From an uncultured virus (IMG/VR IMGVR_UViG_3300021976_000009) (taxonomy: Duplodnaviria; Heunggongvirae; Uroviricota; Caudoviricetes): a DNA stretch of 64,000 nt. Numbering within the stretch: the stretch's first letter is position 1; each line of letters begins with the position of its first letter. The notes below the pieces were generated by a model. That model was not told where the DNA came from, made no database searches, and saw only the letters and a list, made by a program, of their open reading frames with translations. The stretch lies in the IMG/VR virus record IMGVR_UViG_3300021976_000009, one strand, 5' to 3'. Positions 2,926 through 63,205 of this stretch are shown here, in pieces. The position numbers and the translations under genes were made by a program.

Positions 2926-3010
2926 CAGGTATCCATTTTTAGGGAATACATATCTAATAGAGAAGATGCATTGAATCGACTGCACAAGCTCAAAAGTGAA
3001 TTTCCCATTT

Positions 3011-3050
3011 TTCAAAATTCAAAATTCAAAATTCAAAATTCAAAATTCAA
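3011..3050. repeat. 7-bp tandem repeat TTCAAAA x5.7
   Basis: Read directly. Confidence 0.95.
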
Positions 3051-3194
3051 TTTTCAAAAATTTACGTTTCGTAAAAGTCTATTAGATTTCCTGTGGCCGC
3101 TTCGCGGCGATTTCCTGTGAAAAGCCTTCAGATCGACTATGATTTTCACACTTTCTGGACTGAAAATGTGCCAGAAATAATCCTCCATTTTGCT

Positions 3195-3225
3195 GAAAAA
3201 ATCCTGAAAATGACCGTATACTATC
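3195..3225 (+). promoter_or_regulatory. Putative promoter GAAAAAA-N9-TGACCGTATACTAT heading the virion operon
   Basis: Same motif and spacing at 44550-44580 (-) and 44863-44892 (+). Confidence 0.7.
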
Positions 3226-3337
3226 ATAGCAGTGGGCTGTAGCATGCCGTGTGGCACGCCGTGTGGCACAAATCCGGTCCAAAAAACGTGAAACTCGTCA
3301 ACGTCGGAACGGTGAAACTCTAATAGAGGCAACCCTT

Positions 3338-3694
3338 ATGATTCATTTTCCGGAAGAGTTTCCTCTGGATGCATTGAGTGTCCTGGGGCCAATCATTCGC
3401 TCTGGCGGAACTATCACCGATCCCATTGCAGCAGGTGAGGCCGTGCTCACTCTCCAGGGTTATGGGATGGGTCAGTGGCTTGGGACGACCCATACCGTGG
3501 GAGCAACTGCACCTCCCAATGTGAGTGAACTTGAGCAGGTCGATAGAGCGACGGCATTGGCCGCTCTCGACTCTCTTGAAGAGGGTTCGCACACCGGAGA
3601 CCCCAATCTGGTAGGCAAATTTGATCCCAAGCAATTGGGCAAATTCGCATTGCAAATCGCCAAGTTCATCCTCCCATTCCTTATTGGCCTTTAA
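3338..3694 (+). CDS. Hypothetical protein with hydrophobic/amphipathic C-terminus
   Basis: ATG after GAGG; ends KFALQIAKFILPFLIGL. Confidence 0.7.
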   Translation: MIHFPEEFPLDALSVLGPIIRSGGTITDPIAAGEAVLTLQGYGMGQWLGTTHTVGATAPPNVSELEQVDRATALAALDSLEEGSHTGDPNLVGKFDPKQLGKFALQIAKFILPFLIGL

Positions 3695-3718
3695 CACCTC
3701 ACGCTAACTAAGGAATTT

Positions 3719-4396
3719 ATGGGAACGCTATCCAAACTCCTAATTTTGGCGGCACTCTCTCTTGGCCAAATTGAAGGCCCGGATAGCGTTCCCACCCACC
3801 AAATTGCCACCGTAACTACCGATGTGGTAGCGGACGGTTATATTTGGTTCGTTTTTCCTATCGAACCAAATACCGAAGCTCTCCAATCCAATCCCAAAGT
3901 TTTCCAATTTACTGGCAGTCCCGGGGTACATCAAGTTTCTCTAGTGCCATTGAAAGATGGCATTCCCCAAGGGAAATTTTGGAAAACGGTAACCTTTGGC
4001 CCAACGGGACCTATTCCACCTCCGGGACCCACTCCCCCGCCACCTCCTCCAGGGCCAACTCCTCCTCCAGGGCCATTACCTCCGCCCACTCCCATAACGG
4101 AACCTGTTCATGTCACTTTGATCTATGATATGGATAGGATAGCCACTTCACGGCCGGCGGTAGTAAGCAACTTATCTATTAGAGAAGCTGCCAAGAAATT
4201 GAATATCTTTTGGCGAACTTATGATGATTCGTCATCTGATCTCATTCCGTTGAAGATTCTCCCCACCATTGAAAAAATTGGTGTTCCCGCTCTTGTTATC
4301 CAACGTACCAATGGAACTGTGATAGATGTTCTTCCCTGCCCAGCCACTCCGAATAGCGTGATTGATCTCTTTAACGTTATTAGAGGTAATCCGTAA
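3719..4396 (+). CDS. Secreted Pro-rich protein (signal peptide, beta domain, PxP linker, thioredoxin-like C-domain without CxxC)
   Basis: MGTLSKLLILAALSLGQ; PPPGPTPPPPPPGP; GVPALVIQ. Confidence 0.7.
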   Translation: MGTLSKLLILAALSLGQIEGPDSVPTHQIATVTTDVVADGYIWFVFPIEPNTEALQSNPKVFQFTGSPGVHQVSLVPLKDGIPQGKFWKTVTFGPTGPIPPPGPTPPPPPPGPTPPPGPLPPPTPITEPVHVTLIYDMDRIATSRPAVVSNLSIREAAKKLNIFWRTYDDSSSDLIPLKILPTIEKIGVPALVIQRTNGTVIDVLPCPATPNSVIDLFNVIRGNP

Positions 4397-4401
4397 ATCC
4401 T

Positions 4402-5256
4402 ATGGCTAGCGAACTTGAGACCATTGTTGATCCATACACTGGAGAAACTCGTTATCTTGGTTCGCTGCCAAGTGATCCTCGTTTGGTGGCCGCTTTACCG
4501 ACATACGTTGGAGAAATTCTTCCTCCTAGCGAACTAATGGATTTCAATGATTTCTCTCCCGATCTGTTGATCAAAGATCAAAACGGACAGGGAGCGTGTA
4601 ATGGTTTCGCTTCCGCAGCGGTGATAGAACAGTCCAGATTTGTTCAGGGAATGGATCACGTTCTGCTCTCAGGTAGCTATGTTTATAGCATTCTCTGTAA
4701 TGGTCGTGATCGTGGCAGTAACATTCTTCAAGCATACAAGCTCCTGATTGATCAAGGTGTCGCTCCGGAGTCCCAAGTCCCTTATCTTACGCTTAATCCG
4801 AACAAGCTCACTGCTGAAGCTCATCGTGACGCCGCCAATTATAAAATGGAATTTGGAGCCGCCTACCAATCTTGGCGGCAAATTGTTAGTGCAGTCTACT
4901 TACGCGAGAATATGAATCTGTCAGTTTGTGTCGGACGCCATTTTTCCAATCTCGATAGTGAGGGCGTGGCTGGATTGGATAAGGGTCAAGGCAACCATGC
5001 GGTTGCCGTTGGACTTGGCTTGAAATTCTCGAAGAAATGGGGCTGGCTTGTCCTTATGCGAAACTCCTGGAGTACCAAATGGGGTAACAAGGGAATGTGT
5101 TGGTTGGCAGAAGCTCATATCGAAGCTGGCTCTTACTTTGAGTGTTTCTCTGTTAGAGCCGTCAAGGATGATCCAACGGGCAAAAAGAATCCTCCGGTTG
5201 TTATCTTAGATAACTTACCTAAGCGAACGACCTGGAAAATGGCATCCGCCGCGTAG
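4402..5256 (+). CDS. Papain-like (C1 family) cysteine peptidase
   Basis: DQNGQGAC (Q...C), NHAV (H), RNSWSTKWGNKG (N). Confidence 0.92.
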   Translation: MASELETIVDPYTGETRYLGSLPSDPRLVAALPTYVGEILPPSELMDFNDFSPDLLIKDQNGQGACNGFASAAVIEQSRFVQGMDHVLLSGSYVYSILCNGRDRGSNILQAYKLLIDQGVAPESQVPYLTLNPNKLTAEAHRDAANYKMEFGAAYQSWRQIVSAVYLRENMNLSVCVGRHFSNLDSEGVAGLDKGQGNHAVAVGLGLKFSKKWGWLVLMRNSWSTKWGNKGMCWLAEAHIEAGSYFECFSVRAVKDDPTGKKNPPVVILDNLPKRTTWKMASAA

Positions 5257-5280
5257 TTCTCTATTAGATTCGAGGAGTCG

Positions 5281-5859
5281 ATGGGATTATACGAACGTGA
5301 ACCTTCTGAAACACCTATCAAAAAAGTGCCCTATCCTGATCATCCTAATCGGTGTCAGGCAGTTGGCGGTTCTCATGGTGATCAATGTTTCAACTTAGCA
5401 GCTCCGGAATCGAAATATTGCCTTGCTCACAGTGGTAATTTTGCAGTAGCTCAAACTCAATTGAAGGAATTGAATCTCTATCGTGTAAAAAAGTACGAAA
5501 AACGTATTCGCGAATTCAAAGAGGCGAATGGTGCTCGCGGTCTCGAAGAAGAATTGGCCATCATGAGGATGGTATTGGAAGAAATCCTCCTCAAGTGTGA
5601 GAATGAAGGGGAAATGGGCCTCCTTCTCTATTCCACCAAGATATCGGAGACTGTTCGCGATATCAAAACCCTGGTGTTGTCCGTTGAGCGTCTATCAAGC
5701 AAGGCGGGATTGACCATCGGACGTTCTCAGGGAGTAGTATTGGCAGGTAAGGTGGTCGATATCATCTCTCGTCATGTCACCGATATGGAGGCCCTTAACC
5801 GGATTGCTAATGATATCGGTGAAGCTTTTGTCATGCCTGATCCTGAAAATGCGGAGTAA
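5281..5859 (+). CDS. Putative terminase small subunit
   Basis: Immediately upstream of TerL; helical, with an N-terminal C-C-C-H cluster. Confidence 0.5.
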   Translation: MGLYEREPSETPIKKVPYPDHPNRCQAVGGSHGDQCFNLAAPESKYCLAHSGNFAVAQTQLKELNLYRVKKYEKRIREFKEANGARGLEEELAIMRMVLEEILLKCENEGEMGLLLYSTKISETVRDIKTLVLSVERLSSKAGLTIGRSQGVVLAGKVVDIISRHVTDMEALNRIANDIGEAFVMPDPENAE

Positions 5860-18344: not shown

Positions 18345-20877
<2,533 letters not shown>

Positions 20878-44498: not shown

Positions 44499-44549
44499 TT
44501 GATCGAGTGCATGCATTCAAGCAGTCAATCACGGTCTGAGAGGTCCCCC

Positions 44550-44862: not shown

Positions 44863-44892
44863 GAAAATATGCGACAATTGACCGTATCCTAT
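44863..44892 (+). promoter_or_regulatory. Putative promoter for the rightward replication operon
   Basis: GAAAATA-N9-TGACCGTATCCTAT; overlaps a sigma70-like TTGCCA-N17-GACAAT (44850-44878). Confidence 0.65.
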
Positions 44893-44935
44893 ATGGGGAA
44901 ACCACATGGCTGGCGAAAAGGTGTCTTTTCGCTGA

Positions 44936-44973
44936 TTTCTCTAATCTAAAGGTAGGCGAATCTATTAGAGAAA
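44936..44973 (+). promoter_or_regulatory. 38-bp composite element, copy 2
   Basis: TTTCTCTAATCTAAAGGTAGGCGAATCTATTAGAGAAA. Confidence 0.85.
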
Positions 44974-45025
44974 TCGGTCAAAGGCTTCAGCGACCGAATC
45001 TAATAGAGAAGTCAGAGGGCAGACA

Positions 45026-47503: not shown

Positions 47504-47608
47504 TCGTAACGGCCCTGTCCTTCACAAAACCGGATTGTGATGTGGCAGGACTGGTCCCCCGGTAAGTCTCGGCTTACCGGGGGATACATCCATTTAGAGA
47601 AAGTGATT

Positions 47609-47779
47609 ATGGTTACTAAAGTTTGGCCATTGCTCCTTGAATGTGATGGACAGAATTGCAAGAAGCAAACAATGGTCTATAGCAGGAATGAGAAAGTAGC
47701 AACTATTCCTTGGGATTGGAGAAAATTAGATACTTTTATTTATTGTCCCAAATGTGTAGAGAAAATGGGAATAGATTAA
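47609..47779 (+). CDS. Small zinc-binding protein
   Basis: CD...C, W...YCPKC. Confidence 0.55.
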   Translation: MVTKVWPLLLECDGQNCKKQTMVYSRNEKVATIPWDWRKLDTFIYCPKCVEKMGID

Positions 47780-48324
47780 TGCAAGTAATACCATTGAGTA
47801 TGAGCCAGGTTAACTGGTCTGATTATGTAAGCATTGCGTATAAGCATGTGGGCCATTCACCCACACGATCACTTGATGGAGCGGGAATCAAACCGGGTGA
47901 TCCCTATAGCTTTTTAGCTAGCTTAGCGGAATTGGAAATTGAGGGAACTGATCCGCGTACAGGTGTACTCTCGGCCAATCATACGCTGGCACACGTTCAT
48001 TTATCTTTTTTATGTGTGCTATCTGCACAGGAACAGAATGCACTGAGAAACATTCCGATCCTGGATATTTCTTTCATTGATGGAAAAGAGGATTACGAAT
48101 CTACTAGAGTTGATCTCATGATCATCTCGGGAACACTTTTACACTGGCAATTAATCATTCCTTTAATGTTAGAAGGGCTTGATCTCTCTCGAACATACTA
48201 TGTGAGAAGGAAGTTTTTCAATGCCATTTATAATTGGCTCATCAAATTTAATTTCAAGGACCTATTCGTCAGTTATAAGATTGTTCAATTGACAGATGGA
48301 ACCTATTGCCTGGAGCCCAAATGA
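47779..48324 (+). CDS. Hypothetical protein, weak resemblance to the ThyX fold
   Basis: H.L.H...SF and ISG.L..W motifs; no RHR motif. Confidence 0.4.
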   Translation: MQVIPLSMSQVNWSDYVSIAYKHVGHSPTRSLDGAGIKPGDPYSFLASLAELEIEGTDPRTGVLSANHTLAHVHLSFLCVLSAQEQNALRNIPILDISFIDGKEDYESTRVDLMIISGTLLHWQLIIPLMLEGLDLSRTYYVRRKFFNAIYNWLIKFNFKDLFVSYKIVQLTDGTYCLEPK

Positions 48325-48509
48325 AAGAATTGTTCAAACGCAAAGTTGACAAATTGTGTCAATGGATAGCATGGAAGCTTCCTAAGCGAATTGCTATGTG
48401 GACCTATGTTAGAGTAGGTGCCCATGCGACTACCGGAAAGTATGGAGATACAGTGCTGCCTGAAATTACAATGATGGAAGCTCTTAAACGATGGGAATGT
48501 AATGGGTGA
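48321..48509 (+). CDS. Hypothetical protein
   Basis: RBS GGAG; WIAW.LP motif. Confidence 0.6.
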   Translation: MKELFKRKVDKLCQWIAWKLPKRIAMWTYVRVGAHATTGKYGDTVLPEITMMEALKRWECNG

Positions 48510-48723
48510 TATAACGCACTATTGTCATTGGCCTGGTTGTCGCACACCAGTTTCACCAAAGTTATGGGGATGTAAGCGACATTGGTATGCTCTTCCGAAG
48601 GAATTACGCAACAAAGTTTGGGATGCCTATGTTCCAGGGCAAGAAATCCGGAAGGACCCAACTGGAGAGTATATGGATGTGATGGCTGAACTTTACGCAT
48701 GGATCAAAGCCAATGGCGGGTAG
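48502..48723 (+). CDS. Small zinc-binding protein
   Basis: H.C....C...C..HW..LP. Confidence 0.65.
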   Translation: MGDITHYCHWPGCRTPVSPKLWGCKRHWYALPKELRNKVWDAYVPGQEIRKDPTGEYMDVMAELYAWIKANGG

Positions 48724-48873
48724 CATTCTCTGATAGCGTTCGGCTACATTGATGATCCCCAATCATCAGGGTTGATCGCCGGTCTCCGGGCGATTTAAAA
48801 TCCGGGAGACAAAAAATAGGAGGACCTGGGTGATGATGGGATCACTTGGCAAATCCAATCTCTATTAGAGAAA

Positions 48874-50799
48874 GTGAAAACTATGCCAGTTGTATCAATG
48901 ATTTCTGTCAGTGGCCGTCACAAGTACAAAAAGGAAGTAGATATCAATTCTACTGGAAGAGGGACATTACAACTTGAGTTCGATTATGACGAATATCTCA
49001 AGGATGAAGTAAAGGCAATGGATGGTGCCAGATGGAATCCAGATATTAAAAGTTGGATTGTTAAGGATACTCCAAGGAATTGGTTTCAACTTCGTTTCCT
49101 CATGGGAGAGAATCCTTATACTTGGTATGATGCTCCTCTAGTAGAGTTTGTTAGTCGGGTCGATACGATCTATCCGCAACAAATCCAAATGGTCAGGGAA
49201 GGACTGACCTATCGGCAGATGATCTGGGCGGCGGAAATGGGCTTAGGCAAGACGCTTGCCGCTATCCTGATGATCGAGGAAGCTCTTGAACGTTGGAATT
49301 TTCGGAAAGTTTGGTGGGTTGGACCTAAGTCCGCTCTGGCCAGTTTCGAGGTTGAAGTGGCCACTTGGGGCATGCTTAATCTTCCCGAGAAGATCATGAC
49401 CTATGAGGAGTTAGTCAAAACGGTAAAGAATTGGCCTCCCGGATTAAAAGCTCCTCAGATCATTATCTTGGATGAAGCTAGTCGTTGCAAAACGCCTACT
49501 ACGCAACGAACACAATCCGTCATGGAAGTTACTAAGGGAATGCGAGAAGATTATGGTGAAAATGAGCCATTCATTATCGAGATGACGGGAACTCCTGCTC
49601 CCAAGAGTCCATTGGATTGGTATTCGCTTTGTGAAGTAGCCAAGCCCGGATTCATTCGCGAAGGCAATATACATAAGTTCCGGGATCGGTTGGGCGTAGT
49701 AGAAAAGCGAGAGTCTCCAGCGGGCGGGGTGTATCCACATACCGTAACATGGAGAGATAGCGAGAATAAATGTCGTCATTGTGGTTCCACTCGGGAGGAA
49801 CATGATTTCGATGTGATTGCGCGAGAGGGTATCGCACATGAGTTTCAACCAGGAATAAATGAGGTCGCAAAACTCTATAAGAGAATGAAAGGACTAGTTT
49901 CCGTTTACTTCAAGAAGGACTGGCTATCCTATCTTCCGGACAAACAGTATCGTATCCTTCGTTGCAAAGTTAGTCGGAGCACAGCCAATGCAGCATCATC
50001 TATCCAATCTAATGCAAAACGGGCCGTAACGGCTCTTACTTTGCTCCGAGAGTTATCTGATGGATTCCAATATTCCGATATCGAAGAAGGCACCACGTCC
50101 TGCCCTCTTTGTCTTGGGTCGAAAAGGACAGAAGTTCCATTTGTCCTGGACGAATCAGGCAAGATGGAACTTCGAGAAGTTGAATGTACCAATTGTAGTG
50201 GCGAAGGAGTTGTCCCCAAATCTATTAGAGTAACTAACTCAGTAGCATGCCCAAAGGATGACATTTTAGAAAGTATTCTCGATGATCATGAAGATGGGCG
50301 ATTGGTCATCTATGCTGGATTTACTGGCTCTATTGATCGTATTGTTACATTATGCTTGCGTAAAGGTTGGGGCACGATTCGTGTCGACGGACGAGGATGG
50401 GAATCCTCACTCCCAGTCTCTGCCGATGTAAAGCAATCTTTACCGAAGAAACTATTGGATGTTTTCCAGAGAAAAGGTAAATATCCTATAGGATTTGATG
50501 AAAAGATCGCATTTATTGGTCATCCGGGCTCGGCGGGAATGGGAATCACATTGACAGCGAGCAATGAAATCGTCTATTATTCCAATGATTTCAATGCGGA
50601 AAGTAGAATTCAATCCGAGGATCGTATTCATCGTCCAGGGATGGACCTAAACAAGGGGTGTATGATCACTGATATTGTCCATCTCCCTTCGGACATAGTT
50701 GTCTTGAAGAACCTCAAGGACAAGCGTAGACTCCAAGACATGAGCTTGGGTCTTTTCCATGAATCTATGAAGATGGCCGATGAAGATCGTTTGCTTTAA
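48874..50799 (+). CDS. SF2 (SNF2-like) helicase with zinc-finger insertions
   Basis: EMGLGKT, ILDEAS, MTGTP, GMGITLT, QSEDRIHR.G. Confidence 0.92.
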   Translation: MKTMPVVSMISVSGRHKYKKEVDINSTGRGTLQLEFDYDEYLKDEVKAMDGARWNPDIKSWIVKDTPRNWFQLRFLMGENPYTWYDAPLVEFVSRVDTIYPQQIQMVREGLTYRQMIWAAEMGLGKTLAAILMIEEALERWNFRKVWWVGPKSALASFEVEVATWGMLNLPEKIMTYEELVKTVKNWPPGLKAPQIIILDEASRCKTPTTQRTQSVMEVTKGMREDYGENEPFIIEMTGTPAPKSPLDWYSLCEVAKPGFIREGNIHKFRDRLGVVEKRESPAGGVYPHTVTWRDSENKCRHCGSTREEHDFDVIAREGIAHEFQPGINEVAKLYKRMKGLVSVYFKKDWLSYLPDKQYRILRCKVSRSTANAASSIQSNAKRAVTALTLLRELSDGFQYSDIEEGTTSCPLCLGSKRTEVPFVLDESGKMELREVECTNCSGEGVVPKSIRVTNSVACPKDDILESILDDHEDGRLVIYAGFTGSIDRIVTLCLRKGWGTIRVDGRGWESSLPVSADVKQSLPKKLLDVFQRKGKYPIGFDEKIAFIGHPGSAGMGITLTASNEIVYYSNDFNAESRIQSEDRIHRPGMDLNKGCMITDIVHLPSDIVVLKNLKDKRRLQDMSLGLFHESMKMADEDRLL

Positions 50800-50830
50800 G
50801 CGATCTAAATCTAATAGAGAAAGCACAACG

Positions 50831-51712
50831 ATGAGCACGACACTTGAAATGGGCCGTAAGATTGTCAAAGTTCCGATGAACAAGATCAAGCACATTGACG
50901 AGCACAACTGTCGGGGACGGGTACAGCCACAGGATTGCGTTACATTGGCTGCACGCATCCGTACCGAAGGGCTGTTGTACCCTATCCAGATTGCCAAACT
51001 TCGGGAACCTGAGGGTGAGTACGAATATGAGATCATCGCCGGTTTTCGCCGTTTCATGGCACACCGGATCAATGAAGCTGAAACGATTGAATGCGAAATT
51101 CTATCAGATTCGCTATCGGAAGCGGATAAGGCCGTTATTAATTTAACGGAGAATCTTTCCCGAGCCGATTTGAATATCCTCCAGGAAGCCGCAGGACTTG
51201 ATCGAATCAAACGTCTCCGTTCTATGACGCAAAAAGAGTTAGCCGATACCCTAGGCGTGTCACAGAAGTGGGTCCAGATTCGGCTCTGGTCCCTGGAACT
51301 TGAACAGCCAATCCAGGAAGATATTCGAAAAGGTTTCCTAAAACAACAGCACATCGAACAACTCAAAGCTCTCCCTGCTGGCGCGAAGCGATTTGCTTAC
51401 GTCAAGCAGGTCAAATCGGCCCAGCTCTCCAATGAGAAGCCTCGTGTCTCATTAGCAAAGAAGAATCCGTTCTCAAAGAAAAGGCGAGAGCGGGTAGAAA
51501 TCTTTGAGATGCAAGATCATCTATTAGAGTCGCTCGGCGGGGGAAGAGTTGACAAACTCCCCGAGAACGCTCGTCTGATTTTGCAGGCACTCGGTTGGGC
51601 TGCTGGGGAGACAACAGATATGGAAATGTACGGGACTCTTCGTGCGATTGCGAAGAAGAATGGGTTGCATTATGAAATACCAGAGTCAGCAATGTCAGCC
51701 CTCCAAGGATGA
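50831..51712 (+). CDS. parB: ParB/Spo0J-family protein
   Basis: LA..I...GLL.PI, YEIIAGFRRF.A, ENL.R.DLN...EA, HTH TQKELADTLGVSQKWV. Confidence 0.93.
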   Translation: MSTTLEMGRKIVKVPMNKIKHIDEHNCRGRVQPQDCVTLAARIRTEGLLYPIQIAKLREPEGEYEYEIIAGFRRFMAHRINEAETIECEILSDSLSEADKAVINLTENLSRADLNILQEAAGLDRIKRLRSMTQKELADTLGVSQKWVQIRLWSLELEQPIQEDIRKGFLKQQHIEQLKALPAGAKRFAYVKQVKSAQLSNEKPRVSLAKKNPFSKKRRERVEIFEMQDHLLESLGGGRVDKLPENARLILQALGWAAGETTDMEMYGTLRAIAKKNGLHYEIPESAMSALQG

Positions 51713-51863
51713 TTGTCGGCGATGCAAAATCAAGCTTCGCCTTGTTCATGGAAAACGTGGCTATTATTACCGTTGCGATATCTGCAAAGTGACGGTGAAT
51801 AAGAAGCCAATTAGGGAAACCGTGTTATCGTGATCCTTTAACAACTAATAGAAAAAGTTACCA

Positions 51864-54389
51864 ATGAGTGAGCCAATTTTCTATGATACGGAAACAGTTG
51901 GTCTTCAGGGGCCAATTGTTCTTTTGCAATATGCTCAGGGAGATGATCCTGTTAGTCTCCATTCCGTCTGGACGGAACCAATTAGTGACACGATGGAAAT
52001 TATCGAATGGATGATGAACAATGCCGGTGGCGTCATCGGGTTCAATCTTGCATTTGATCATTTCCATCTGTGTCAACTCTATACGACACTGGCACGTTTA
52101 CGTTCTCAGGTTGGTGATGACGAGTTGCCCGAGGAGCATATCAATCTTTATGCGGAATTGGAACCGGGAGCCCGAGACGGCGATTGTTTGAAGCCGGTAA
52201 GTGTCTGTGATCTCATGTTAGTGGCACGCCGTGGCCCTTATCAATCCATGATGGCACGTAAGCCGATCAGGATACGTAAGGTTCCGGCTATCTTAGCCAT
52301 TCCGTTAGCTGCTGAACTTGAAGAACGTCTAGTGCTTAATGAAATCTATTTCAGCAAGCGAAAGAATAAAAATCTGCCCAAGTGGCAGGTCAAAGAATGT
52401 CGCGATAGGAAAAATTCTAATAGAGTTGATCCCGCTTTCAATGATATCGTTCTCGATTTCAAAGCATCCACTGCCTTGAAAGTCATAGCAAATGATATGT
52501 TAGGGGAGGATCGGTATGGACGCCAACGTTTCACTTATGGAGATATTGAACTTAACAAAAAGCATTATCCGGGTGAGTTGGGATATGCCCCTTTTGCTTT
52601 GGCGACTTCGACGGCAAAAGCCAGGTGGCGTATCTCTGACAAATTTCCAATACGAAAAATACGTCGGAAGTATTCATGGCCTGGTGTCATTAAGCATCAT
52701 ATATCGCACTGGACCTACGGAACTCACGCCAGAATGTATGCTGAGGATGACGTTAAAGACACCCGAGGCATTTGGAAAGGATTCGATTATCCTCAGCTTG
52801 GTGATGTCGATAGTGAGTTGGCATGTATGGTCGGGGCTGTGCGTTGGCGAGGATTTACGATTGATCCGAGCAAAATTCAAAACTTCAAGGAAGAAGCTAT
52901 CAAAATTGCTAAAAGGGCTCCCAGATCACCACGAGAAGTGAAAGATTATCTTAGTCCTCTAATGACTCCGATAGAGAAACTCTCTTTTACTACCACTGAT
53001 AAAGTTACTTTAACGAATATGGCTGGTGATCCCGAGAACGCTATCATAGGCTGGCAGGTAGATTGTCCCGATTGTAATGGTGTAGGAACACGGGATGTTC
53101 TCCCAATGTTAGAAGCTTCCATGACTAGGGGAATGCCAACTCTAGTAGAGAAACCAAAAGTTCTGGAAGTTCCTTGTACCACTTGTGAAGGCTCCGGAGG
53201 AGTCGATCATCCTGTAACGGAGAAAGCTCGTCTTGTCCTAAAAAGTCGTAAGGCGAAAAAGGACATTGAGATTTACGATAAGCTTCTCATTGCTGATAGA
53301 TTCCATGCAAGCTTTAGCGTCATTGGCACTCTTTCTAGCCGCATGTCTGGCAGCGATAACCTCAACCCACAGGCTATCAGGAACGACAAGACCTTTAGAT
53401 CCGCATTTACCCTTGCTCATTCTAATAGCGTACTATGTGGTGGCGATTTTTCTTCTTTTGAAGTAAGTCTCGCCGAAGCAAATTACAACGACGCGAAATT
53501 AAGGGAACAACTTCTTTCAACAACGGAGTGCTACCTATGCGGGGGACAAAATCCCGAGTGCAAAGATTGCTTCGGTACGAACAAAACCCCGATGAAAATT
53601 CACGCTTTGTTCGGGACGATGTGTTTCCCTCAAATGTCTTACGCAGAGATCGTCAAGAACAAAATTATTTATACTCGCTCAAAATCAGGATTCTTTTCGC
53701 AAATTTACGGCGGCAACTTCTCAACCTTAATGAGCCGCCTGGGCGTTGACGAAGAAAGTGCAATGAAAGCGGAAGCCCGCTTTACCAATACCTATGACGG
53801 AGTGAAGCGAGCCCGGCAACTTATTTTCGATAAGTTCTGTTCCATGAGACAACCGAATGGAATCGGAACTAAGGTTATTTGGCATGAGCCCTCTGACTAT
53901 ATCGAGAACATGCTTGATCCACCTTTTAGGAGGTATTTTCTATTAGAGAATCAAATAGCAAAAGTGCTATTCGAGTTAGCCAATACTCCACCCAAAGGTT
54001 GGAGAGAATTCAAAGATTTCAAAGTCTGGCGAAGAGACCGTGAACAGACTGCCGGGGGAGCCGTCCAATCAGCATTGTACGGTGCTGCTTTTCAGATTCA
54101 GGCAGCCAATATGCGAGCCGCCGCCAATCACGTTATCCAATCCACAGGAGCGGAGATTACGAAAGCGGTCCAATTTGATATCTGGAAATTGCAGCCTCCC
54201 GGCATCAATCGTTGGCGAGTGCAGCCAATGAATATTCACGACGAAATTGAGGTGGTAATTGATAATGATCCGAATCTAGTAGATTCGGTTCAGTCGGTAG
54301 TAATGCAGCGTACTGAGTCATATCGTCCACTTGTTCCCCTAATTGGGATTGAGTGGAAAAACTACATGAAGTCATGGGGCGAAAAGTAG
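51864..54389 (+). CDS. polA: Family A DNA polymerase with 3'-5' exonuclease
   Basis: YDTET, GFNLAFD, YAEDD; SRMS...NPQ, DFSSFEV (A), K...F...YG (B), IHDEI (C). Confidence 0.92.
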   Translation: MSEPIFYDTETVGLQGPIVLLQYAQGDDPVSLHSVWTEPISDTMEIIEWMMNNAGGVIGFNLAFDHFHLCQLYTTLARLRSQVGDDELPEEHINLYAELEPGARDGDCLKPVSVCDLMLVARRGPYQSMMARKPIRIRKVPAILAIPLAAELEERLVLNEIYFSKRKNKNLPKWQVKECRDRKNSNRVDPAFNDIVLDFKASTALKVIANDMLGEDRYGRQRFTYGDIELNKKHYPGELGYAPFALATSTAKARWRISDKFPIRKIRRKYSWPGVIKHHISHWTYGTHARMYAEDDVKDTRGIWKGFDYPQLGDVDSELACMVGAVRWRGFTIDPSKIQNFKEEAIKIAKRAPRSPREVKDYLSPLMTPIEKLSFTTTDKVTLTNMAGDPENAIIGWQVDCPDCNGVGTRDVLPMLEASMTRGMPTLVEKPKVLEVPCTTCEGSGGVDHPVTEKARLVLKSRKAKKDIEIYDKLLIADRFHASFSVIGTLSSRMSGSDNLNPQAIRNDKTFRSAFTLAHSNSVLCGGDFSSFEVSLAEANYNDAKLREQLLSTTECYLCGGQNPECKDCFGTNKTPMKIHALFGTMCFPQMSYAEIVKNKIIYTRSKSGFFSQIYGGNFSTLMSRLGVDEESAMKAEARFTNTYDGVKRARQLIFDKFCSMRQPNGIGTKVIWHEPSDYIENMLDPPFRRYFLLENQIAKVLFELANTPPKGWREFKDFKVWRRDREQTAGGAVQSALYGAAFQIQAANMRAAANHVIQSTGAEITKAVQFDIWKLQPPGINRWRVQPMNIHDEIEVVIDNDPNLVDSVQSVVMQRTESYRPLVPLIGIEWKNYMKSWGEK

Positions 54390-55262: not shown

Positions 55263-55563
55263 TGCTCTCATTGACCCGAATAAGCGAGATGATTACATCT
55301 CCCGTCAACTTGTCGAGAACGGTGATCCCAGCTATTTCGAGATGAGAGTTGTCGAGTATATGCAGGAAGCCAGGAGACTCCGGATAAGGATATCAGCTTC
55401 CCGTGTTCGACCGACAACTCTATTAGAGGAATATGAATTCATAATGCGAAAGGCGATGACTGCCATTGCCATTGCCGCAGGGAAATTGAAAGTTGAAAAT
55501 GAGACCAAAACCCCCAAAGCCACGAATCGGCCCGGAAGCAATAGTTCAAGGGGACTTGGTTGA
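55210..55563 (+). CDS. Hypothetical protein
   Basis: RBS GGAG. Confidence 0.55.
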   Translation: MPGKVRPNKTEIKKFLDSALIDPNKRDDYISRQLVENGDPSYFEMRVVEYMQEARRLRIRISASRVRPTTLLEEYEFIMRKAMTAIAIAAGKLKVENETKTPKATNRPGSNSSRGLG

Positions 55564-55921
55564 TTTTCTCCGGATGCGTCAATGGATTGTGAAAGAGACG
55601 CATGGAAATCTCTACCAATCGGGCCTTCCTGATCTCTATATCGCTCATAGAGATTATGGAGCCCGATGGGTAGAATGCAAAAACGCTCTCTCCTACTCGT
55701 TCACTCCGGCACAATTAGAATTTTTCCCGTTGCTCGCATCCGTTGGTATTGGCGTTTGGATACTGACGGCTGCGAGCGACGAGGAATATTTCAAATTGTG
55801 GGAACCTGCTAACTGGTGGCAATATCTTCCAGTGAGCAAGCCTAAGGTAAGGAGAAGCCAACCGAAGAATAATCATACCTATACTCCGAAATACCCATTC
55901 AAACTTCCCGGTGAAAAATAA
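55499..55921 (+). CDS. VRR-NUC-type PD-(D/E)xK nuclease (resolvase-like)
   Basis: E..VQ, GLPDL, WVECK, TPAQ..F. Confidence 0.85.
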   Translation: MRPKPPKPRIGPEAIVQGDLVDFLRMRQWIVKETHGNLYQSGLPDLYIAHRDYGARWVECKNALSYSFTPAQLEFFPLLASVGIGVWILTAASDEEYFKLWEPANWWQYLPVSKPKVRRSQPKNNHTYTPKYPFKLPGEK

Positions 55922-57291: not shown

Positions 57292-57335
57292 TCCGTTACC
57301 GAGATGAGTGATTATCTAATAGATTCGAGGGATTG

Positions 57336-59375
57336 ATGCTGACGCTTCCGGAAATCGAAAAACGTTTCATGTTCAATGTCAATGGCAAGTTCGTTAAAGA
57401 ACTGCCGGATCGCATTGTCAACTTGATGAAAGACAATCCCGTTCCTTGGGGGCCGGTTGGCTATGTCACATATAAGCGGACGTACTCCCGTCACTTGGAC
57501 GATAATGATCTTACGTCGCCGAAGGAAGAGTATTGGCAAACCCTTCGGCGATGTGTCAATGGAGTGTTGCACATTGGTGGTGCATTTACTCTGCGAGAAT
57601 TGGAATTGCTCTGCGGTTACCTTATCAATCTCAAATGCAACTTCTCTGGTAGAGGATTATGGCAACTAGGAACCTCTACCGTCGACAGGGTTGGTGGAGA
57701 CTCATTACAGGCGTGTTGGCACGTTCGCGTCAACGAGCCCATTCATCCGTTCGCATTCACCTTCGAGGAACTTATGTTAGGTGGGGGTGTTGGATTCTCC
57801 ATCATGCCCGAGGATGTTTATGAGATTCCGGTTGTTAAACACAATGTGAATGTAACTCGCGTTGACACATATGATTGCGATTTCATTGTTCCCGATAATC
57901 GGGAGGGTTGGGTAGAACTCCTGAAGCGTATACTTTCAGCGTTCTTTTTCACCGGGAAAGATATCAATTACAATCCGGATTGTCTTCGTGCCAAAGGTAA
58001 ACGGATTAAGAGCTTCGGTGGAACGGCTTCCGGTTCGGAGGATTTGGTCAAAGGCTTGGCGGAAATCGTGCGAATCTTAAAGAGTCGGCACGAACAGAAA
58101 TTGCGTCCTATTGACGCTCTTGATATCCAGAATATCTTGGGTATGATCGTGGTTGCTGGGAACGTTCGTAGAAGTGCTCAGATCGCCAAAGGATCAGGTA
58201 GGGATAGAGATTTCCTGTTAGCAAAGTATTGGGGCAATGGTCAGTTGATTCCTAAGTGGCGTCAACAGTCGAACAATACCGTTGCGGAAAGCAACCTTGA
58301 CGATCTTCTCCCGGAATTCTGGTGGGGTTACGAAGTCGATGAATTCGGCCAGGGACGTGGAGAGCCTTATGGACTCTTCAACCCTTATCTCGCTGCCAAT
58401 TTTGGTCGCCTGGTTGATGGTCTACGTCTCGGTTATAATAGCCGAGTGTGTGGCCCTAATCCTTGCGGCGAAATTATGCTTGAGTCGGATGAAGCCTGTA
58501 ACCTGGCGGAACTCTATCTCACAAACTTGGCGGATGGACAGGAATTCCATACCGCAGCGGCATTGATGTACAAGTGCCAGAAGACCGTCTCATCACTCCC
58601 ATTTCTCTATGATCGGACCAATGCCGTTGTAAGTCGTAATCAACGGTTAGGATTGGGTATCACGGGAGTATTTGCTGCCAGTCCGAACATGAGAAATCCC
58701 GTGATCTTTGATAGTGTGTATAAGCACATTGTTGAATGCGATCGTGAGTATACTCAGCTATTAGGTAATGGCGTTCCCATGTCCATTGCGTACACGACCG
58801 TTAAGCCTTCGGGAACGGCTGCCAAGTTGGCCAATGGTTGCACTCCCGGAGCTAATCCTGCCTACTCTCTTTATCAGATTTTGCGGATTGCTTTCGCTGC
58901 CGATAGTCCGATGCTGCCGACTCTAAAAGATTCGGGCTATCCAATGGAACCCAAATTGAATCAGGACGGTAGTCGCGATTTCAATACCACGATGGTATCC
59001 TTCCCCGTTCGGTATCCGGACGGAACTCCCACCGAAGATATCACCGCCATTGAACAACTCGATAACATCGTTCTCCTCCAACGCTATTGGAGCGATAATG
59101 CTGTTTCGGCCACGATCCAGTACCGACCGGAAGAACTAGACGGTATCAAGGTTTGGATGAAAACCAATTACAAAGAAAATCTCAAGTCAATCGCATTCTG
59201 CTTGCACAGTGGACATGGTTTTAAACAGCCCCCTAACGAGGCTCTCACAAAGGAACAGTACGAAATATTCGCTAAGAGTGTAAAGCCGATCGACTCTTTT
59301 AGAGTTGGTGGCGATCTGGACGATACTGCCATTGATGGCGTTGAATGTATAGGTGATCGGTGTGGCATTAAGTGA
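57336..59375 (+). CDS. nrdJ: Class II (B12-dependent, monomeric RTPR-type) ribonucleotide reductase
   Basis: YKRTYSR, GRGLW, GNVRRSA, NPCGEI, CNLAE, TVKPSGT, C-terminal C....C.IK. Confidence 0.95.
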   Translation: MLTLPEIEKRFMFNVNGKFVKELPDRIVNLMKDNPVPWGPVGYVTYKRTYSRHLDDNDLTSPKEEYWQTLRRCVNGVLHIGGAFTLRELELLCGYLINLKCNFSGRGLWQLGTSTVDRVGGDSLQACWHVRVNEPIHPFAFTFEELMLGGGVGFSIMPEDVYEIPVVKHNVNVTRVDTYDCDFIVPDNREGWVELLKRILSAFFFTGKDINYNPDCLRAKGKRIKSFGGTASGSEDLVKGLAEIVRILKSRHEQKLRPIDALDIQNILGMIVVAGNVRRSAQIAKGSGRDRDFLLAKYWGNGQLIPKWRQQSNNTVAESNLDDLLPEFWWGYEVDEFGQGRGEPYGLFNPYLAANFGRLVDGLRLGYNSRVCGPNPCGEIMLESDEACNLAELYLTNLADGQEFHTAAALMYKCQKTVSSLPFLYDRTNAVVSRNQRLGLGITGVFAASPNMRNPVIFDSVYKHIVECDREYTQLLGNGVPMSIAYTTVKPSGTAAKLANGCTPGANPAYSLYQILRIAFAADSPMLPTLKDSGYPMEPKLNQDGSRDFNTTMVSFPVRYPDGTPTEDITAIEQLDNIVLLQRYWSDNAVSATIQYRPEELDGIKVWMKTNYKENLKSIAFCLHSGHGFKQPPNEALTKEQYEIFAKSVKPIDSFRVGGDLDDTAIDGVECIGDRCGIK

Positions 59376-61883: not shown

Positions 61884-62081
61884 ATGATCCTAATCAACAT
61901 TCTCATCCTGCTATGTCTGTATGGAGCGTTCCTTGTGCTCCTATGGATGATTCTCAAATACTTCGGCGGCAAACTTGGTGTTGATGCTGACCTGATGAAG
62001 ATCATTTTCGGACTGATAGCATTGATGGTCTTCGTCTATCTCATCATTTACTATCCGCCGCAAACTACCAAGTTTCTCTAA
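61884..62081 (+). CDS. Two-TM small membrane protein
   Basis: Two hydrophobic helices; RBS GAGG. Confidence 0.7.
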   Translation: MILINILILLCLYGAFLVLLWMILKYFGGKLGVDADLMKIIFGLIALMVFVYLIIYYPPQTTKFL

Positions 62082-62140
62082 TAGATTAGTTCAAACGATT
62101 TCTCTAATAGATTAGTTCAAACGATTTCTCTAATAGATTA
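62073..62140. repeat. 26-bp tandem repeat TTTCTCTAATAGATTAGTTCAAACGA x2.6
   Basis: Read directly; each unit carries TCTAATAGA. Confidence 0.95.
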
Positions 62141-62166
62141 ACGTGTACTTTAACAGTAAATAGTGA

Positions 62167-62203
62167 TTTTCTAATAGATTCGAGTACCTTTAGATTAGAG
62201 AAT
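62167..62203 (-). promoter_or_regulatory. 38-bp composite element, copy 3
   Basis: Reverse complement ATTCTCTAATCTAAAGGTACTCGAATCTATTAGAAAA. Confidence 0.85.
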
Positions 62204-62242
62204 TCGTTAAGTGAAATGTTGTAATTTTGCGACATTTTATTG

Positions 62243-62271
62243 TTGCATAGTTCGCGCATTTATGTTACAAT
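62243..62271 (+). promoter_or_regulatory. Sigma70-type promoter (probable early promoter)
   Basis: TTGCAT-N17-TACAAT with extended -10 TG and AT-rich upstream DNA. Confidence 0.75.
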
Positions 62272-62304
62272 GATAGTGCAGGAGGCACCAGTGAGAATGG
62301 ATGA

Positions 62305-62342
62305 TTTCTCTAATCTAAAGGTACTCGAATCTATTAGAGAAA
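62305..62342 (+). promoter_or_regulatory. 38-bp composite element, copy 4
   Basis: TTTCTCTAATCTAAAGGTACTCGAATCTATTAGAGAAA. Confidence 0.85.
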
Positions 62343-62361
62343 GTGAAAGGGGGAAAGTAAG

Positions 62362-62637
62362 ATGGTCAAGTTCACGATCGACGAGCTACTCAATTTTAAG
62401 GCGGAGGAAAAGGCAATGAGTAAGGTTATTATTCTAAAAGAGTCAGCGCCATCGGAGTGCCAGCTTTGCCATGAGGCAATTACGGATTCATTCATTGACG
62501 GTCGTACTATCCAGGGTCCGTGGGGGTACATGTGCCTGAGGTGCCATCGGGAGCATGGCGTTGGACTTGGGACGGGCAAGGGCCAGATGTATGAGAAGCA
62601 GGCCGAGACCGGGAATTTCATCAAAACGCAGGGTTGA
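62362..62637 (+). CDS. Hypothetical zinc-binding phage protein
   Basis: C..C...F.DG.T..G.W..MC..C....G.GLG.G.GQ.Y. Confidence 0.75.
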   Translation: MVKFTIDELLNFKAEEKAMSKVIILKESAPSECQLCHEAITDSFIDGRTIQGPWGYMCLRCHREHGVGLGTGKGQMYEKQAETGNFIKTQG

Positions 62638-62717
62638 GTCAATTCGCCAGGGACGGCAACCTTACCCGGCATGATGCCATTTCTATTAGAGAAAGTTCAA
62701 TTACGGAGTTCAGTCTA

Positions 62718-62936
62718 ATGCCTTTCGAGTTCACAGCCGCCGAAGTGAAAAGTTTCCAGATGAGTTACGACGAGTTCGAGCGGCTCATGATCGACACCGG
62801 CATGGATGCCGATATGGTCGAGGCTCTCGTAATCTGGATGGGTATGGCCGATCAGCCTATGCTCAACATGGCCGAGATCATGCAGCGAATGGGTGGACTG
62901 GTTTTTACTCAGCCTGACATCCAGATCATTGATTAA
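62718..62936 (+). CDS. Hypothetical protein (start MPFEF)
   Basis: RBS GGAG after the repeat module. Confidence 0.6.
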   Translation: MPFEFTAAEVKSFQMSYDEFERLMIDTGMDADMVEALVIWMGMADQPMLNMAEIMQRMGGLVFTQPDIQIID

Positions 62937-62946
62937 GGAAAGTTAG

Positions 62947-63159
62947 ATGAAAAGTAACCTCTCGTTAGCTAATGACGTTGATCATCACCTGATCAAGTCC
63001 GTCTTCATGACGAAGGAAGAGGTGAACGCCCTCTTGAAAGAGGACGGCTTTACTGACACCACGCTCCAGTATTTCTGGCAGCGTCTCAACTATCCTGAGG
63101 GGAGTCCGGTTTCTATCTCGATCTTGATCCAAAACCTCGCCTCACTCGCCACGTTTTGA
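62947..63159 (+). CDS. Hypothetical protein
   Basis: Leader AAGGAAAGTTAG. Confidence 0.6.
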   Translation: MKSNLSLANDVDHHLIKSVFMTKEEVNALLKEDGFTDTTLQYFWQRLNYPEGSPVSISILIQNLASLATF

Positions 63160-63205
63160 GTGAGCCTACCCGCCAGGGATGGCAAATCTACTAGAGAAAG
63201 TTACA

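Follow-up and report, generated by a model that had tools for sequence, protein, structure and literature searches.

The window, the whole stretch of 64,000 nucleotides analysed here (IMG/VR record IMGVR_UViG_3300021976_000009, an uncultured Caudoviricetes phage), carried a dense unstranded array of a short palindrome, TCTANTAGA, between positions 2953 and 63195. The array had 84 exact copies, 72 with A or T at the centre (TCTAWTAGA) and 12 with G or C (TCTASTAGA). We lean towards the explanation that an orphan phage ParB docks or loads at these dispersed palindromes. Two conserved ParB/Noc-type proteins encoded in the window, both lacking a partner, are the most likely candidates for the reader, either singly or together.

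In 100 dinucleotide shuffles of the window, TCTAWTAGA occurred 0.60 times on average (sd 0.70, largest 3) and TCTASTAGA 0.26 times (largest 3). A preliminary description of this DNA had counted about 72 and about 12 copies by hand, and the exact search returned the same numbers and recovered every coordinate given there. Its estimate of about one chance copy in 64 kb was close to the shuffles, which gave less than one, and its G + C content of ~44% is corrected to 45.3%. The two W forms were the top 9-mers of the whole window (41 and 31 copies), the centre base of the 84 sites being T in 41, A in 31, G in 8 and C in 4. The site density was ~1.3 per kb, with a mean spacing of about 726–760 bp and a largest gap between neighbours of 2702 bp. 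The spacing was more even than random (CV 0.704 vs 0.984 ± 0.103, p = 0.0002).

Sixty sites lay wholly within the 83 called CDS. A codon-preserving shuffle, suggested earlier as a check, gave 2.06 ± 1.37 intragenic sites when synonymous codons were exchanged and the proteins kept (maximum 7 in 200 runs), and shuffling of the codon order gave 0.62 ± 0.78. The remaining 24 of the 84 sites were not wholly within CDS, while non-coding DNA made up 4.5% of the window. Intragenic sites fell in both stop-free frames. Seventeen of the 84 sites ended 5–31 bp ahead of a start codon, and four were found in operon leaders. The density of the array is far beyond chance and coding constraint, and the array is under selection, being kept dense and evenly spread.

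Both candidate readers belong to a replication module on the + strand. ParB#2 (45026–46102, 358 aa), an orphan of the ParB/Spo0J/Noc type, opens this module and scored above the Pfam cut-offs for both ParB_N (30.5 bits) and HTH_ParB (37.3 bits). It has a DG-x-(H/Q)-R variant of the box-II motif, and its family profile matched Spo0J and Noc structures with an E value of 1e-25. ParB#3 (50831–51712, 293 aa), an orphan of the ParB/Noc type, matched ParB_N with 31.5 bits and HTH_ParB with 43.5 bits and has intact CTP-type motifs, the G-x-R-R and E-N-x-x-R nucleotide-binding motifs being invariant across its family. Among solved structures, the ParB#3 family profile matched Noc (7ol9, E 1.5e-31) and Spo0J best and KorB more weakly. 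Neither protein showed the canonical ParB C-terminal domain PF23552 in a Pfam profile search. By predicted domain content, ParB#2 and ParB#3 are canonical N+HTH ParB/Noc-type proteins. The preliminary description had named three ParBs, and the Pfam matches bear out these two. The protein encoded at 543–1694 on the − strand (“ParB#1”, 383 aa), of uncertain family, had no match in Pfam or PHROGs; its ParB_N likeness comes only from the protein atlas (feature score 0.94 to ParB_N clusters, structural TM 0.36–0.47), and we treat it as a lead. Its gene lies in a GC-rich island (about 1–2700; G + C content 55.4% vs 44.9% in the rest of the window), within which no palindrome site was found.

With ParB#3 as a query we retrieved 69 viral loci, viewed to ±10 kb. 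The rest of the replication module (46751–54389, +), recognized by Pfam matches and by homologues in these loci, travels with both ParBs. ParB#2 had a homologue in 62 of the 69 loci, an OB/SSB-like protein of 250 aa (46751–47503, +) in 62, a ThyX-like protein of 204 aa (47710–48324, +; ThyX profile E 1.2e-5) in 44, a SNF2-type helicase (48874–50799, +) in 66 and a family A DNA polymerase (51864–54389, +) in 61. The model of the OB/SSB-like protein (pLDDT 79.6) gave only weak fold matches, all OB-type. Neither ParA nor an integrase was found in the five whole family records (0/5 each).

To compare arrays, we scored 68 ParB#3-homologue loci of at least 8 kb and 61 random viral loci, an array being called strong when the best-palindrome score (−log10 P) reached 14. 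A hyper-abundant palindrome of their own was found in 33/68 ParB#3 loci vs 1/61 random loci. The medians of the score were 11.5 and 4.7, and the maxima reached 72 in 20 kb in the family and 14.2 in the random loci. Judging from these loci, a dense palindrome is a family-specific trait. The close kin (L001–L005, L196–L202) had the same or a shifted motif, TCTA-N-TAGA or CTCT-N3-AGAG. More distant kin carried other dyads at 0.6–2.2 per kb (GATG-N4-CATC, GATT-N3/4/5-AATC, TGAT-N6-ATCA, AGTTA-N-TAACT and AACTTAAGTT), and the family genome with direct terminal repeats, G002, had 58 sites vs 2 in the reversed control. Each phage lineage has come by drift to a palindrome of its own. Most strong relatives had a spacing CV of 0.5–0.8. 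Where the window was aligned with a related locus (~67% nucleotide identity), 15 sites were shared, 8 were present in the locus only and 13 in the window only, which supports the view that sites are kept at orthologous positions yet turn over. A strong array was missing in 35/68 ParB#3 loci, and the ParBs alone are thus not sufficient for it.

The placement of the sites points toward ParB#2. In the 33 strong loci, the 500 bp upstream of its gene held 65 sites vs 22.2 expected, and this region ranked first in 27/55 loci (ties included). In few-site relatives nearly all sites were upstream of ParB#2: in L060 five of six, in a 19-bp tandem array, and in L008 four of four; L033 had sites ahead of both ParB genes. 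In the window, the divergent intergenic control region between a leftward operon and ParB#2 (44411–45025, no strand) held four sites, paired as 44426/44465 and 44961/44999, as well as two copies of a 40-bp composite element, one facing left (44460–44499) and one facing right (44934–44975). A second site-rich control region (62065–62345, no strand) held five sites, three of them in a 26-bp tandem repeat (62077, 62103, 62129) and the others at 62170 and 62330, together with two further copies of the composite element (62165–62204 facing left, 62303–62343 facing right). One site, at 50810, was 13 bp 5′ of the ParB#3 ATG; across the family there was no enrichment upstream of ParB#3 (9 vs 7.7 expected), nor within either ParB gene. 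Because the sites cluster ahead of ParB#2, this protein is slightly favoured over ParB#3 as the candidate reader. Sites of any regulator would, however, be expected to collect before ParB#2, since the main intergenic region lies there.

The preliminary description had further suggested testing whether the palindrome tracks the ParB HTH sequence. In 351 pairs of 27 phages, the identity of the 12-residue recognition helix predicted a shared motif with an AUC of 0.73 for ParB#3 and 0.65 for ParB#2, no better than the control proteins (SNF2 0.70, PolA 0.77, SSB-like protein 0.81). The covariation is therefore indistinguishable from shared ancestry, and it does not decide between ParB#2 and ParB#3. 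In L201 the helices of both ParBs differ, yet the TCTA-N-TAGA core is kept, and the GATG and GATT clades had an identical ParB#3 helix despite their different motifs. The earlier interpretation, that a ParB loads at these sites, is thus sustained with respect to selected double-stranded DNA sites, a family with two orphan ParBs and no ParA, and the clustering before ParB#2; the helix-motif covariation did not exceed that of the control proteins, and the third ParB is no more than a lead.

Among other explanations, the shape of the sites bears on whether they act as hairpins. TCTA and TAGA were separated by one base in 84 cases, and every other spacer length from 0 to 9 occurred once at most; there were 84 exact vs 47 one-mismatch sites. 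The flanks preferred C (44) or A (28) at −1 and G (59) or T (22) at +1, with A/T-rich positions ±2 and ±3. A palindromic extension beyond the core was absent in 52/84 sites, 1 bp long in 22/84 and at least 2 bp long in 10/84, so the earlier statement that many copies extend to 15–19 bp was too strong. Core and flanks can form a short stem, and two of the four composite elements folded well as RNA (−19.2 kcal/mol, z −4.3; −13.2 kcal/mol, z −3.2), whereas the other two showed no advantage over shuffles (z −0.6 and −0.3). Flank complementarity above the marginal base frequencies was not found at any of eight positions in the 84 sites (at ±1, 32/84 vs 38.6 ± 3.7 expected), and the dyad interior in the relatives was free and non-complementary. 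That the palindromes are RNA or single-stranded DNA hairpins or cruciforms for processing, priming or termination is already disfavoured and most improbable. Both frames, even spacing, orthologous conservation with turnover and the lack of hairpin covariation support selected double-stranded DNA sites. It is very unlikely that the sites are DNA-modification marks, with a ParB-fold protein guiding or activating a modifying enzyme. ParBs lacking a DNA-binding domain activate phage thymine dioxygenases, according to the available text of PMC13229309 and its preprint, and the window encodes a nucleotide-metabolism set (the ThyX-like protein, dNMP kinase, NDK and RNR). However, the published ParBs, as described there, have no HTH domain, which both ParBs here have, and the specificity given for the dioxygenases is a trinucleotide (PMC13229309). 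No Tet/JBP match was found among the ORFs of the window or in the five family records (0/5, a weak result since the same search matched 0/14 control genomes).

An origin in the host, with the phage mirroring a HIP1-like palindrome of the host chromosome or a methylase or repair bias, is improbable. Such mimicry exists, as the control locus L101 had 11 copies of GCGATCGC (HIP1; available text of PMC5861425), and an adenine-methylase-type gene was present in two of five family records (N6_N4_Mtase in G005, MethyltransfD12 in G003). Methylases are sporadic in the family, however: G002, G004 and G001 had none of the three tested families, and neither had the 91 scanned ORFs of the window. The motif differs between related phages, even within the same collections, the best random locus scored far below the family, and the tandem arrays before ParB#2, like the even spacing, suggest that selection acts on the phage itself. 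A reader other than a ParB, namely another phage-encoded dimeric DNA-binding protein using the sites as stoperator-like roadblocks or operators, is unlikely, yet less so than the foregoing. It would fit the helix comparison, the sites shortly before start codons and in operon leaders, the many function-unknown proteins of the window and the three DNA-binding proteins named as candidates for the Cluster O array in the available text of PMC4351075; such a protein, perhaps an unannotated one resembling a repressor, could be encoded beyond the ±10 kb viewed in the relatives. Against it, no sequence-specific DNA binder besides the ParBs was conserved in the module common to the 69 loci, the sigma factor of the window had no homologue in them, and the sites of few-site relatives cluster directly before ParB#2.

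If an orphan ParB is the reader, its dimer would recognize the dyad via the HTH domains. Sites every 0.5–1 kb would allow the protein to cover the entire phage chromosome, either by binding alone or, like ParB, Noc and KorB, as a CTP-driven sliding clamp. Candidate purposes would be a genome-wide transcription brake at gene junctions and operon leaders, the organization of the phage DNA, or its marking and shielding; coating, shielding, compaction and repression by a ParB are all hypothetical. Against a ParB as the reader stand the 9-bp core, which is shorter than parS, NBS and OB sites, and the lack of a PF23552 match.

Several known systems resemble this array in part. Noc of Bacillus, an orphan paralogue of ParB for which ParA plays no role, marks the host chromosome at many dispersed palindromes, about one every tens of kb, and depends on a membrane-targeting N-terminus. 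Dispersed palindromes are common to both systems, and ParB#3 resembles Noc as an orphan of the ParB type and in its best solved-structure match (7ol9), whereas the array here is on a phage and about 50–100 times denser. KorB has only about a dozen OB sites on the plasmid RK2. It is an HTH protein of the ParB-CTPase family on this IncP plasmid that binds odd-centred OB palindromes and, sliding along the DNA as a clamp, controls distant genes (available text of PMC11790492, PMC13584720 and PMC13768133). An odd-centred palindrome dispersed over a mobile genome, with an HTH ParB-family protein, is common to both. KorB differs in having, in these sources, a ParA-type partner and clamp-locking co-repressors, while no ParA was found in the five family records and no KorA/TrbA equivalent was identified here. 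Its structures matched the ParB#3 and ParB#2 profiles far more weakly (E 1e-15 and 3e-13) than those of Noc/Spo0J (1e-31 and 1e-25).

In Cluster A mycobacteriophages, stoperators are repressor sites that lie by the tens along the phage genome, many of them in the short gaps between genes; they halt transcription elongation, and their specificity co-evolves with the repressor (available text of PMC9283540 and PMC6550527). As described there, they are asymmetric, follow the direction of transcription and are read by an immunity repressor that acts as a monomer in temperate phages. The sites of the window are palindromes instead, and its phage family had no integrase in five records. HIP1 of cyanobacteria, a short palindrome of unknown function found about once per kb, also inside genes (available text of PMC5861425), is similar in density and intragenic copies; it is described as a host-chromosome property, whereas here the related phages of one family differ in their motif.

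Of the published systems, the nearest is a 17-bp dyad repeat in Cluster O mycobacteriophages such as Corndog. In the available text of PMC4351075, copies of this one palindrome are scattered over a siphophage genome of ~70 kb, within genes, close to their starts and in the short gaps between them, as in the window. That text describes phages with neither integrase nor parAB and with a protein that has a ParB-like domain, and it states that the motif is missing from the host genome. Its authors expect a dimer to bind the repeat and assign it no function. Our search of the right 24.8 kb of Corndog gave 23 copies (0 expected). The Cluster O motif is a different and longer one (7-N3-7, as given there), and Corndog gp90 matches ParB_N only, without HTH_ParB, unlike ParB#2 and ParB#3, and was not among the homologues from searches with either. 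Over the whole genome the array of the window is denser (1.3 per kb), and the way it has diversified can be traced through an entire family.

The window contained 72 exact copies of TCTAWTAGA and 12 of TCTASTAGA, against 0.60 and 0.26 in dinucleotide shuffles, confirming the excess over chance claimed in the preliminary description; all palindrome coordinates listed there were recovered by exact search. The two W-centred forms were the commonest 9-mers of the window (G + C content 45.3%). Other frequent words stemmed from the collagen-repeat gene and were unrelated to the palindrome. The spacer between TCTA and TAGA was always 1 nt (84 copies), every other spacer between 0 and 9 nt being found 0 or 1 time, and one-mismatch copies numbered 47 compared with the 84 exact ones. 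Outside the core, each half-site independently favoured C or A, with A/T further out.

Sixty sites lay wholly inside the 83 called CDSs of the window. Shuffles among synonymous codons, which kept the proteins, gave 2.06 ± 1.37 (maximum 7 in 200), and shuffling the codon order gave 0.62. The dinucleotide and codon-aware shuffles together ruled out chance, composition or a codon artefact as the source of the excess. The intragenic sites used both reading frames free of the motif’s own stop codons, in genes on either strand, signifying a constraint on the DNA and not on the peptide. Non-coding DNA made up 4.5% of the span, yet it held 24 of the 84 sites. Seventeen sites ended 5–31 bp upstream of a start codon, including that of ParB#3 at 50831. 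The sites were also spaced more evenly than random (CV 0.704 vs. 0.984 ± 0.103), with only 0.02% of 5000 simulations being as even.

We compared the window with five close-relative fragments, mutually overlapping and ~67% identical in nucleotides where alignable, using the broader pattern CTCT-N3-AGAG or TCTA-N-TAGA. Fifteen sites were shared at orthologous positions, eight were found only in the relatives and 13 only in the window, showing that sites are conserved and also renewed. The viral record G001 (49.7 kb, offset by 2311 bases) is nearly identical, being part of the window’s own phage; it had the same pattern and is not independent.

To place the array among other viruses, a graded series of ParB#3 homologues was aligned and led to 69 viral loci, with 39 further loci from metagenomes. 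Each locus was scanned without bias for its most over-represented 4+4 dyad (spacers 0–6). In the close kin of the window the dyad was CTCT-N3-AGAG or TCTA-N-TAGA, with densities reaching 2 per kb. The distant kin had each another dyad: GATG-N4-CATC (up to 42 copies in 20.8 kb), GATT-N3/4/5-AATC, TGAT-N6-ATCA, AGTTA-N-TAACT, GATTA-W-TAATC or AACTTAAGTT. A 68.9-kb family record with direct terminal repeats (G002) had 58 copies of GTTANTAAC, compared with two for the reversed control. As a control set we used random viral contigs drawn with an arbitrary 14-mer. Their 61 loci of at least 8 kb had a median best-dyad score (-log10 P) of 4.7, and a single one, with a GC-rich word, reached 14. The ParB#3 loci of this size (n = 68) had a median of 11.5, and 33 of them reached 14. 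This difference (33/68 vs. 1/61) indicates that hyper-abundant palindromes are a trait of the phage family; 35 of the 68 ParB-bearing loci were without a strong array. The sites form an evenly spread array of a duplex-type dyad that is under selection, specific to the family and diversifying between its lineages.

Pfam and PHROGs marked the window as belonging to a tailed phage. The matches included a gpA-type terminase, a portal protein, a P22-type coat protein, a tape measure protein and a collagen-repeat protein. A leftward block encoded a primase, a dNMP kinase, an NDK and a sigma factor, and a rightward replication block encoded ParB#2 (45026–46102, + strand), an SNF2 helicase, ParB#3 (50831–51712, + strand), a family A polymerase, a class II RNR and a NYN nuclease. 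The window yielded no tRNA gene. The collagen triple-helix repeat protein (18847–20877, Pfam E 1e-49) is probably a fibre. Also encoded were a papain-family peptidase C1 (4402–5256) and a CAP-domain protein (42006–42674). From the gene pair 40015–40581/40589–41716, one product was sigma-factor-like (PHROG 351, E 2e-13), and the C-terminus of its neighbour showed a faint likeness, below cut-off (E 1.7e-4), to the hairpin domain of the anti-CBASS/Thoeris sponges Acb2/Tad1. The nucleotide-metabolism set consisted of a ThyX-like protein (47710–48324), the dNMP kinase (35037–35681), the NDK (43622–44086) and the class II RNR (57333–59375).

Within 10 kb on either side of ParB#3, homologues of the SNF2 helicase were found in 66 of the 69 loci, of ParB#2 and of a 250-aa protein in 62 each, of the family A polymerase in 61 and of the primase in 59. 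The ThyX-like protein was divergent (profile E 1e-5), and its gene was kept between the two ParB genes in 44/69 loci. The best-conserved gene of the module encoded a 142-aa protein not assigned to a family (55493–55921), with 45–59% identity in 47/69 loci, far more conserved than ParB#2 or ParB#3. Among 50,697 phage records, ParB#2 and the family A polymerase had no tblastn match at E ≤ 1e-5, and ParB#3 had partial matches only, at <37% identity. On this search, the phage family is without a cultured member.

Of the three ParB proteins proposed in the preliminary description, two were recovered. The ParB N-terminal domain (PF02195, cut-off 26.3 bits) scored 30.5 bits in ParB#2 and 31.5 bits in ParB#3, and the ParB-type HTH (PF17762, cut-off 22.6 bits) scored 37.3 and 43.5 bits. 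The family profiles of ParB#3 and ParB#2 aligned with the solved structures of Noc and Spo0J/ParB over the N-terminal as well as the HTH domain (E 1e-31 and 1e-25, respectively), and KorB structures matched both profiles more weakly. In the ParB#3 family, the G-x-R-R and E-N-x-x-R boxes were invariant or nearly so (G71, R73/R74, E107, N108, R111). The ParB#2 family had a D-G-L-(H/Q)-R variant of the first box and did not conserve the acidic residue in the second. The canonical C-terminal dimerisation domain (PF23552) was absent both from the Pfam matches of the window proteins and from the precomputed domains of the close homologues P0001–P0069; in its place, there was a C-terminal region conserved within the family. 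The third protein (543–1694, - strand, 383 aa) had no Pfam or PHROGs match, its likeness to ParB_N coming from the protein atlas alone (score 0.94, TM 0.36–0.47). Its gene lies in a GC-rich stretch (~1–2700; 52–64% G + C vs. about 45% elsewhere) in which the palindrome does not occur. G001 starts at position 2312, just within this stretch, which could be an island that is variable or was gained recently, or else a region meant to escape the site reader.

Sites gathered upstream of ParB#2, which comes first of the two orphan genes of ParB/Noc type. Where arrays were strong (33 loci), 65 sites fell in the 500 bp upstream of this gene, against 22.2 predicted from local density. Among 55 non-identical loci, this region ranked top of the gene-upstream regions in 27, ties included, and in ~10 it was the sole top region with at least two sites, against ~3 expected. 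It is also the main intergenic region, where the sites of any regulator would gather. No excess was found upstream of ParB#3 (9 vs. 7.7 expected). Some parS sites sit within ParB genes; a preference of this kind was rejected here (33 vs. 36.5 expected in ParB#2, 19 vs. 32.0 in ParB#3). The clustering was plainest in related loci with few sites. In L060, five of the six formed a 19-bp tandem array directly 5' of ParB#2 (2736–3187); in L008, all four were at the ParB#2 start; and in L033 they were upstream of both ParB genes. Such arrangements suggest that an operator or centromere-like cluster next to a ParB gene was the ancestral state, from which sites expanded over the whole genome in roughly half of the family.

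The window itself had four sites, in two pairs, in the divergent region upstream of ParB#2 (44411–45025). A second control region (62065–62345) had five sites, of which three belonged to a 26-bp tandem repeat. The repeat (62071–62145) had ~2.8 units with one palindrome per unit and resembled iterons or a centromere-like array; similar tandem arrays were found 5' of ParB#2 in L060 and, with 16-bp units, in the related locus L062 (4043–4103). A composite element of ~40 bp, made of one full palindrome and an extra left-half copy 18 nt off, occurred four times, at 44460–44499 (-), 44934–44975 (+), 62165–62204 (-) and 62303–62343 (+). Each copy faced the first gene of a transcription unit leaving one of the two divergent control regions. 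As RNA, two of the elements folded strongly (z -4.3 and -3.2) and two did not, so they could be composite operators or leader elements.

The preliminary description had also raised the possibility that related phages carry palindromes which track the HTH of their ParB. Palindromes of their own were indeed present, and the test for tracking fell short. Across 351 pairs drawn from 27 non-redundant phages, the same motif was predicted from 12-residue recognition-helix identity with an AUC of 0.73 for ParB#3 and 0.65 for ParB#2, no better than the control proteins (SNF2 0.70, polymerase 0.77, SSB-like protein 0.81), in a test of low power due to crude motif classes. In a quick tree of ParB#3 the motif classes were clades, as any gene would show. 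The related locus L201 retained the TCTA-N-TAGA core, and both its ParB helices were unlike those of the window. The GATG and GATT clades had an identical ParB#3 helix, and it was the ParB#2 helix that set them apart. Palindrome type goes with phage ancestry, and helix covariation is not separable from phylogeny.

Several other explanations for the palindromes were weighed. A hairpin or cruciform role, under which the two flanks would be expected to covary, was rejected. Over the 84 sites, flank complementarity equalled the expectation from separate base frequencies at each of eight positions; at position ±1 the flanks were complementary in 32/84 sites (38.6 ± 3.7 expected), and 52/84 had no palindromic extension past the core. 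In relatives the dyad interior was free and non-complementary, for example in GATG-N4-CATC. Independent flanks and free interiors are the mark of a symmetric protein that recognises duplex DNA through two half-sites. As such a reader, the 250-aa neighbour of the ParB genes was considered and dismissed: its model was confident (pLDDT 79.6), yet the sole fold matches were weak OB-fold ones, for which reason the predicted structure appears SSB-like and not that of a site reader. Its profile gave only chance-level matches against the PDB. A palindrome driven by a methylase was rejected on the methylase content of the five whole or partial family records, two of which alone had any (C5 0/5, N6_N4 1/5, Dam-like 1/5). 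The random control locus L101, with eleven copies of GCGATCGC (HIP1) in 20 kb, is likely a cyanophage mirroring the iterated palindrome of its host, and a live example of host mimicry as a rival reading.

Known roles of ParB proteins were considered as well. The classical ParABS partition system was ruled out by the lack of ParA: PF01656 (ParA, CbiA/MinD-type) had no match in the five family records, the same search matching 14/14 control genomes, and no ParA was found among the 91 ORFs scanned in the window, outside which lie ~20 kb of the 84-kb contig. Silencing in a prophage or temperate phage was likewise discarded: a tyrosine integrase (Phage_integrase) was found in 0/5 family records, and prokaryote genomes contain next to nothing of the family. 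It gave two matches in 185,579 species genomes, both in metagenome bins and mis-binned-looking, and thus no sign of prophages; the scan pointed to no host either. Another known pathway relies on ParBs which activate T-dioxygenases and, in the accessible accounts, have no DNA-binding domain; both window ParBs keep their HTH. No Tet/JBP dioxygenase was found in the window ORFs scanned or in the five family records, the latter being a weak result, since the search matched no control genome either. On these grounds the pathway was set aside, with the same reservation.

The preliminary description had proposed that a ParB loads at the palindromes and coats the whole phage genome. Its observation stands; the role of a ParB as the reader gained partial support, the hot spot upstream of ParB#2 speaking for it, and the unsuccessful helix covariation test, the lack of a site excess at ParB#3 and the ParB-bearing loci without a strong array against it. 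Judging by sequence, we lean slightly toward a ParB-type protein as the reader, with ParB#2 as the marginally favoured candidate and ParB#3 the next. A ParB dimer would read the dyad and occupy the whole phage chromosome through sites every 0.5–1 kb, perhaps by CTP-dependent sliding, by analogy with ParB, Noc and KorB. Such occupancy could serve as roadblock-type control where genes meet and in operon leaders, could organise or condense the phage DNA, or could mark and shield it. A wider proposal, which we consider conceivable and rather doubtful, is that a pair of orphan ParB clamps and ~100 self-written loading sites form a genome-marking system in a large uncultured family of non-temperate phages. 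A coat or condensate over every kb would set the phage DNA apart from that of the host, for replication/packaging or for shielding from nucleases or SMC-type defences, and lineages would escape cross-recognition by palindrome drift.

Proteins of the ParB-CTPase type are known to bind centromeres (ParABS), to mark the division site (Noc) and to silence genes on a plasmid (KorB). To our knowledge, the density of likely cognate sites in this family is the highest of any. These sites are directly visible in the DNA sequence and diversify between lineages, offering dozens of natural protein–site pairs for the evolution of ParB specificity. If the coating idea is true, it would represent a new viral way to label or protect the own chromosome. 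A 2025 survey of the ParB fold lists, in its accessible text, many orphan phage ParBs with no sites or roles assigned, and the string “palindrom” is absent from that text (PMC12704722). In the openly accessible literature searched, subscription journals aside, we found no report of a lytic phage with a palindrome array across its genome that is linked to a ParB.

From the accessible parts of the published accounts, the nearest mechanisms to the proposed ParB reading are KorB with its OB sites and Noc. The nearest phage-wide silencing is that by the Cluster A stoperators, which are described there as asymmetric, oriented with transcription and found in temperate phages with an immunity repressor; unlike them, the window sites are palindromic and belong to a family without integrase in its five records. 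The nearest pattern in these accounts is that of the Cluster O mycobacteriophages, with a single dyad motif in tens of copies in phages without int or parA. The accessible text reports for Corndog 34 copies of a 17-bp dyad repeat, in intergenic gaps, near gene starts and within genes; Cluster O phages have no integrase and no parAB, a ParB-like domain protein is present and the repeat is absent from the host (PMC4351075). Its authors predict a dimeric binder and leave the function of the repeat open (PMC4351075). Our own count gave 23 copies for the rightmost 24.8 kb of the Corndog genome, and Corndog gp90 matched ParB_N alone. The likeness to the window array is one of pattern, and not of sequence or demonstrated mechanism. 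The phage family of the window also offers a testable candidate function for the Cluster O repeats, long without an explanation. The array is a phage feature of an already-known kind, very dense here and with a concrete, testable candidate reader.
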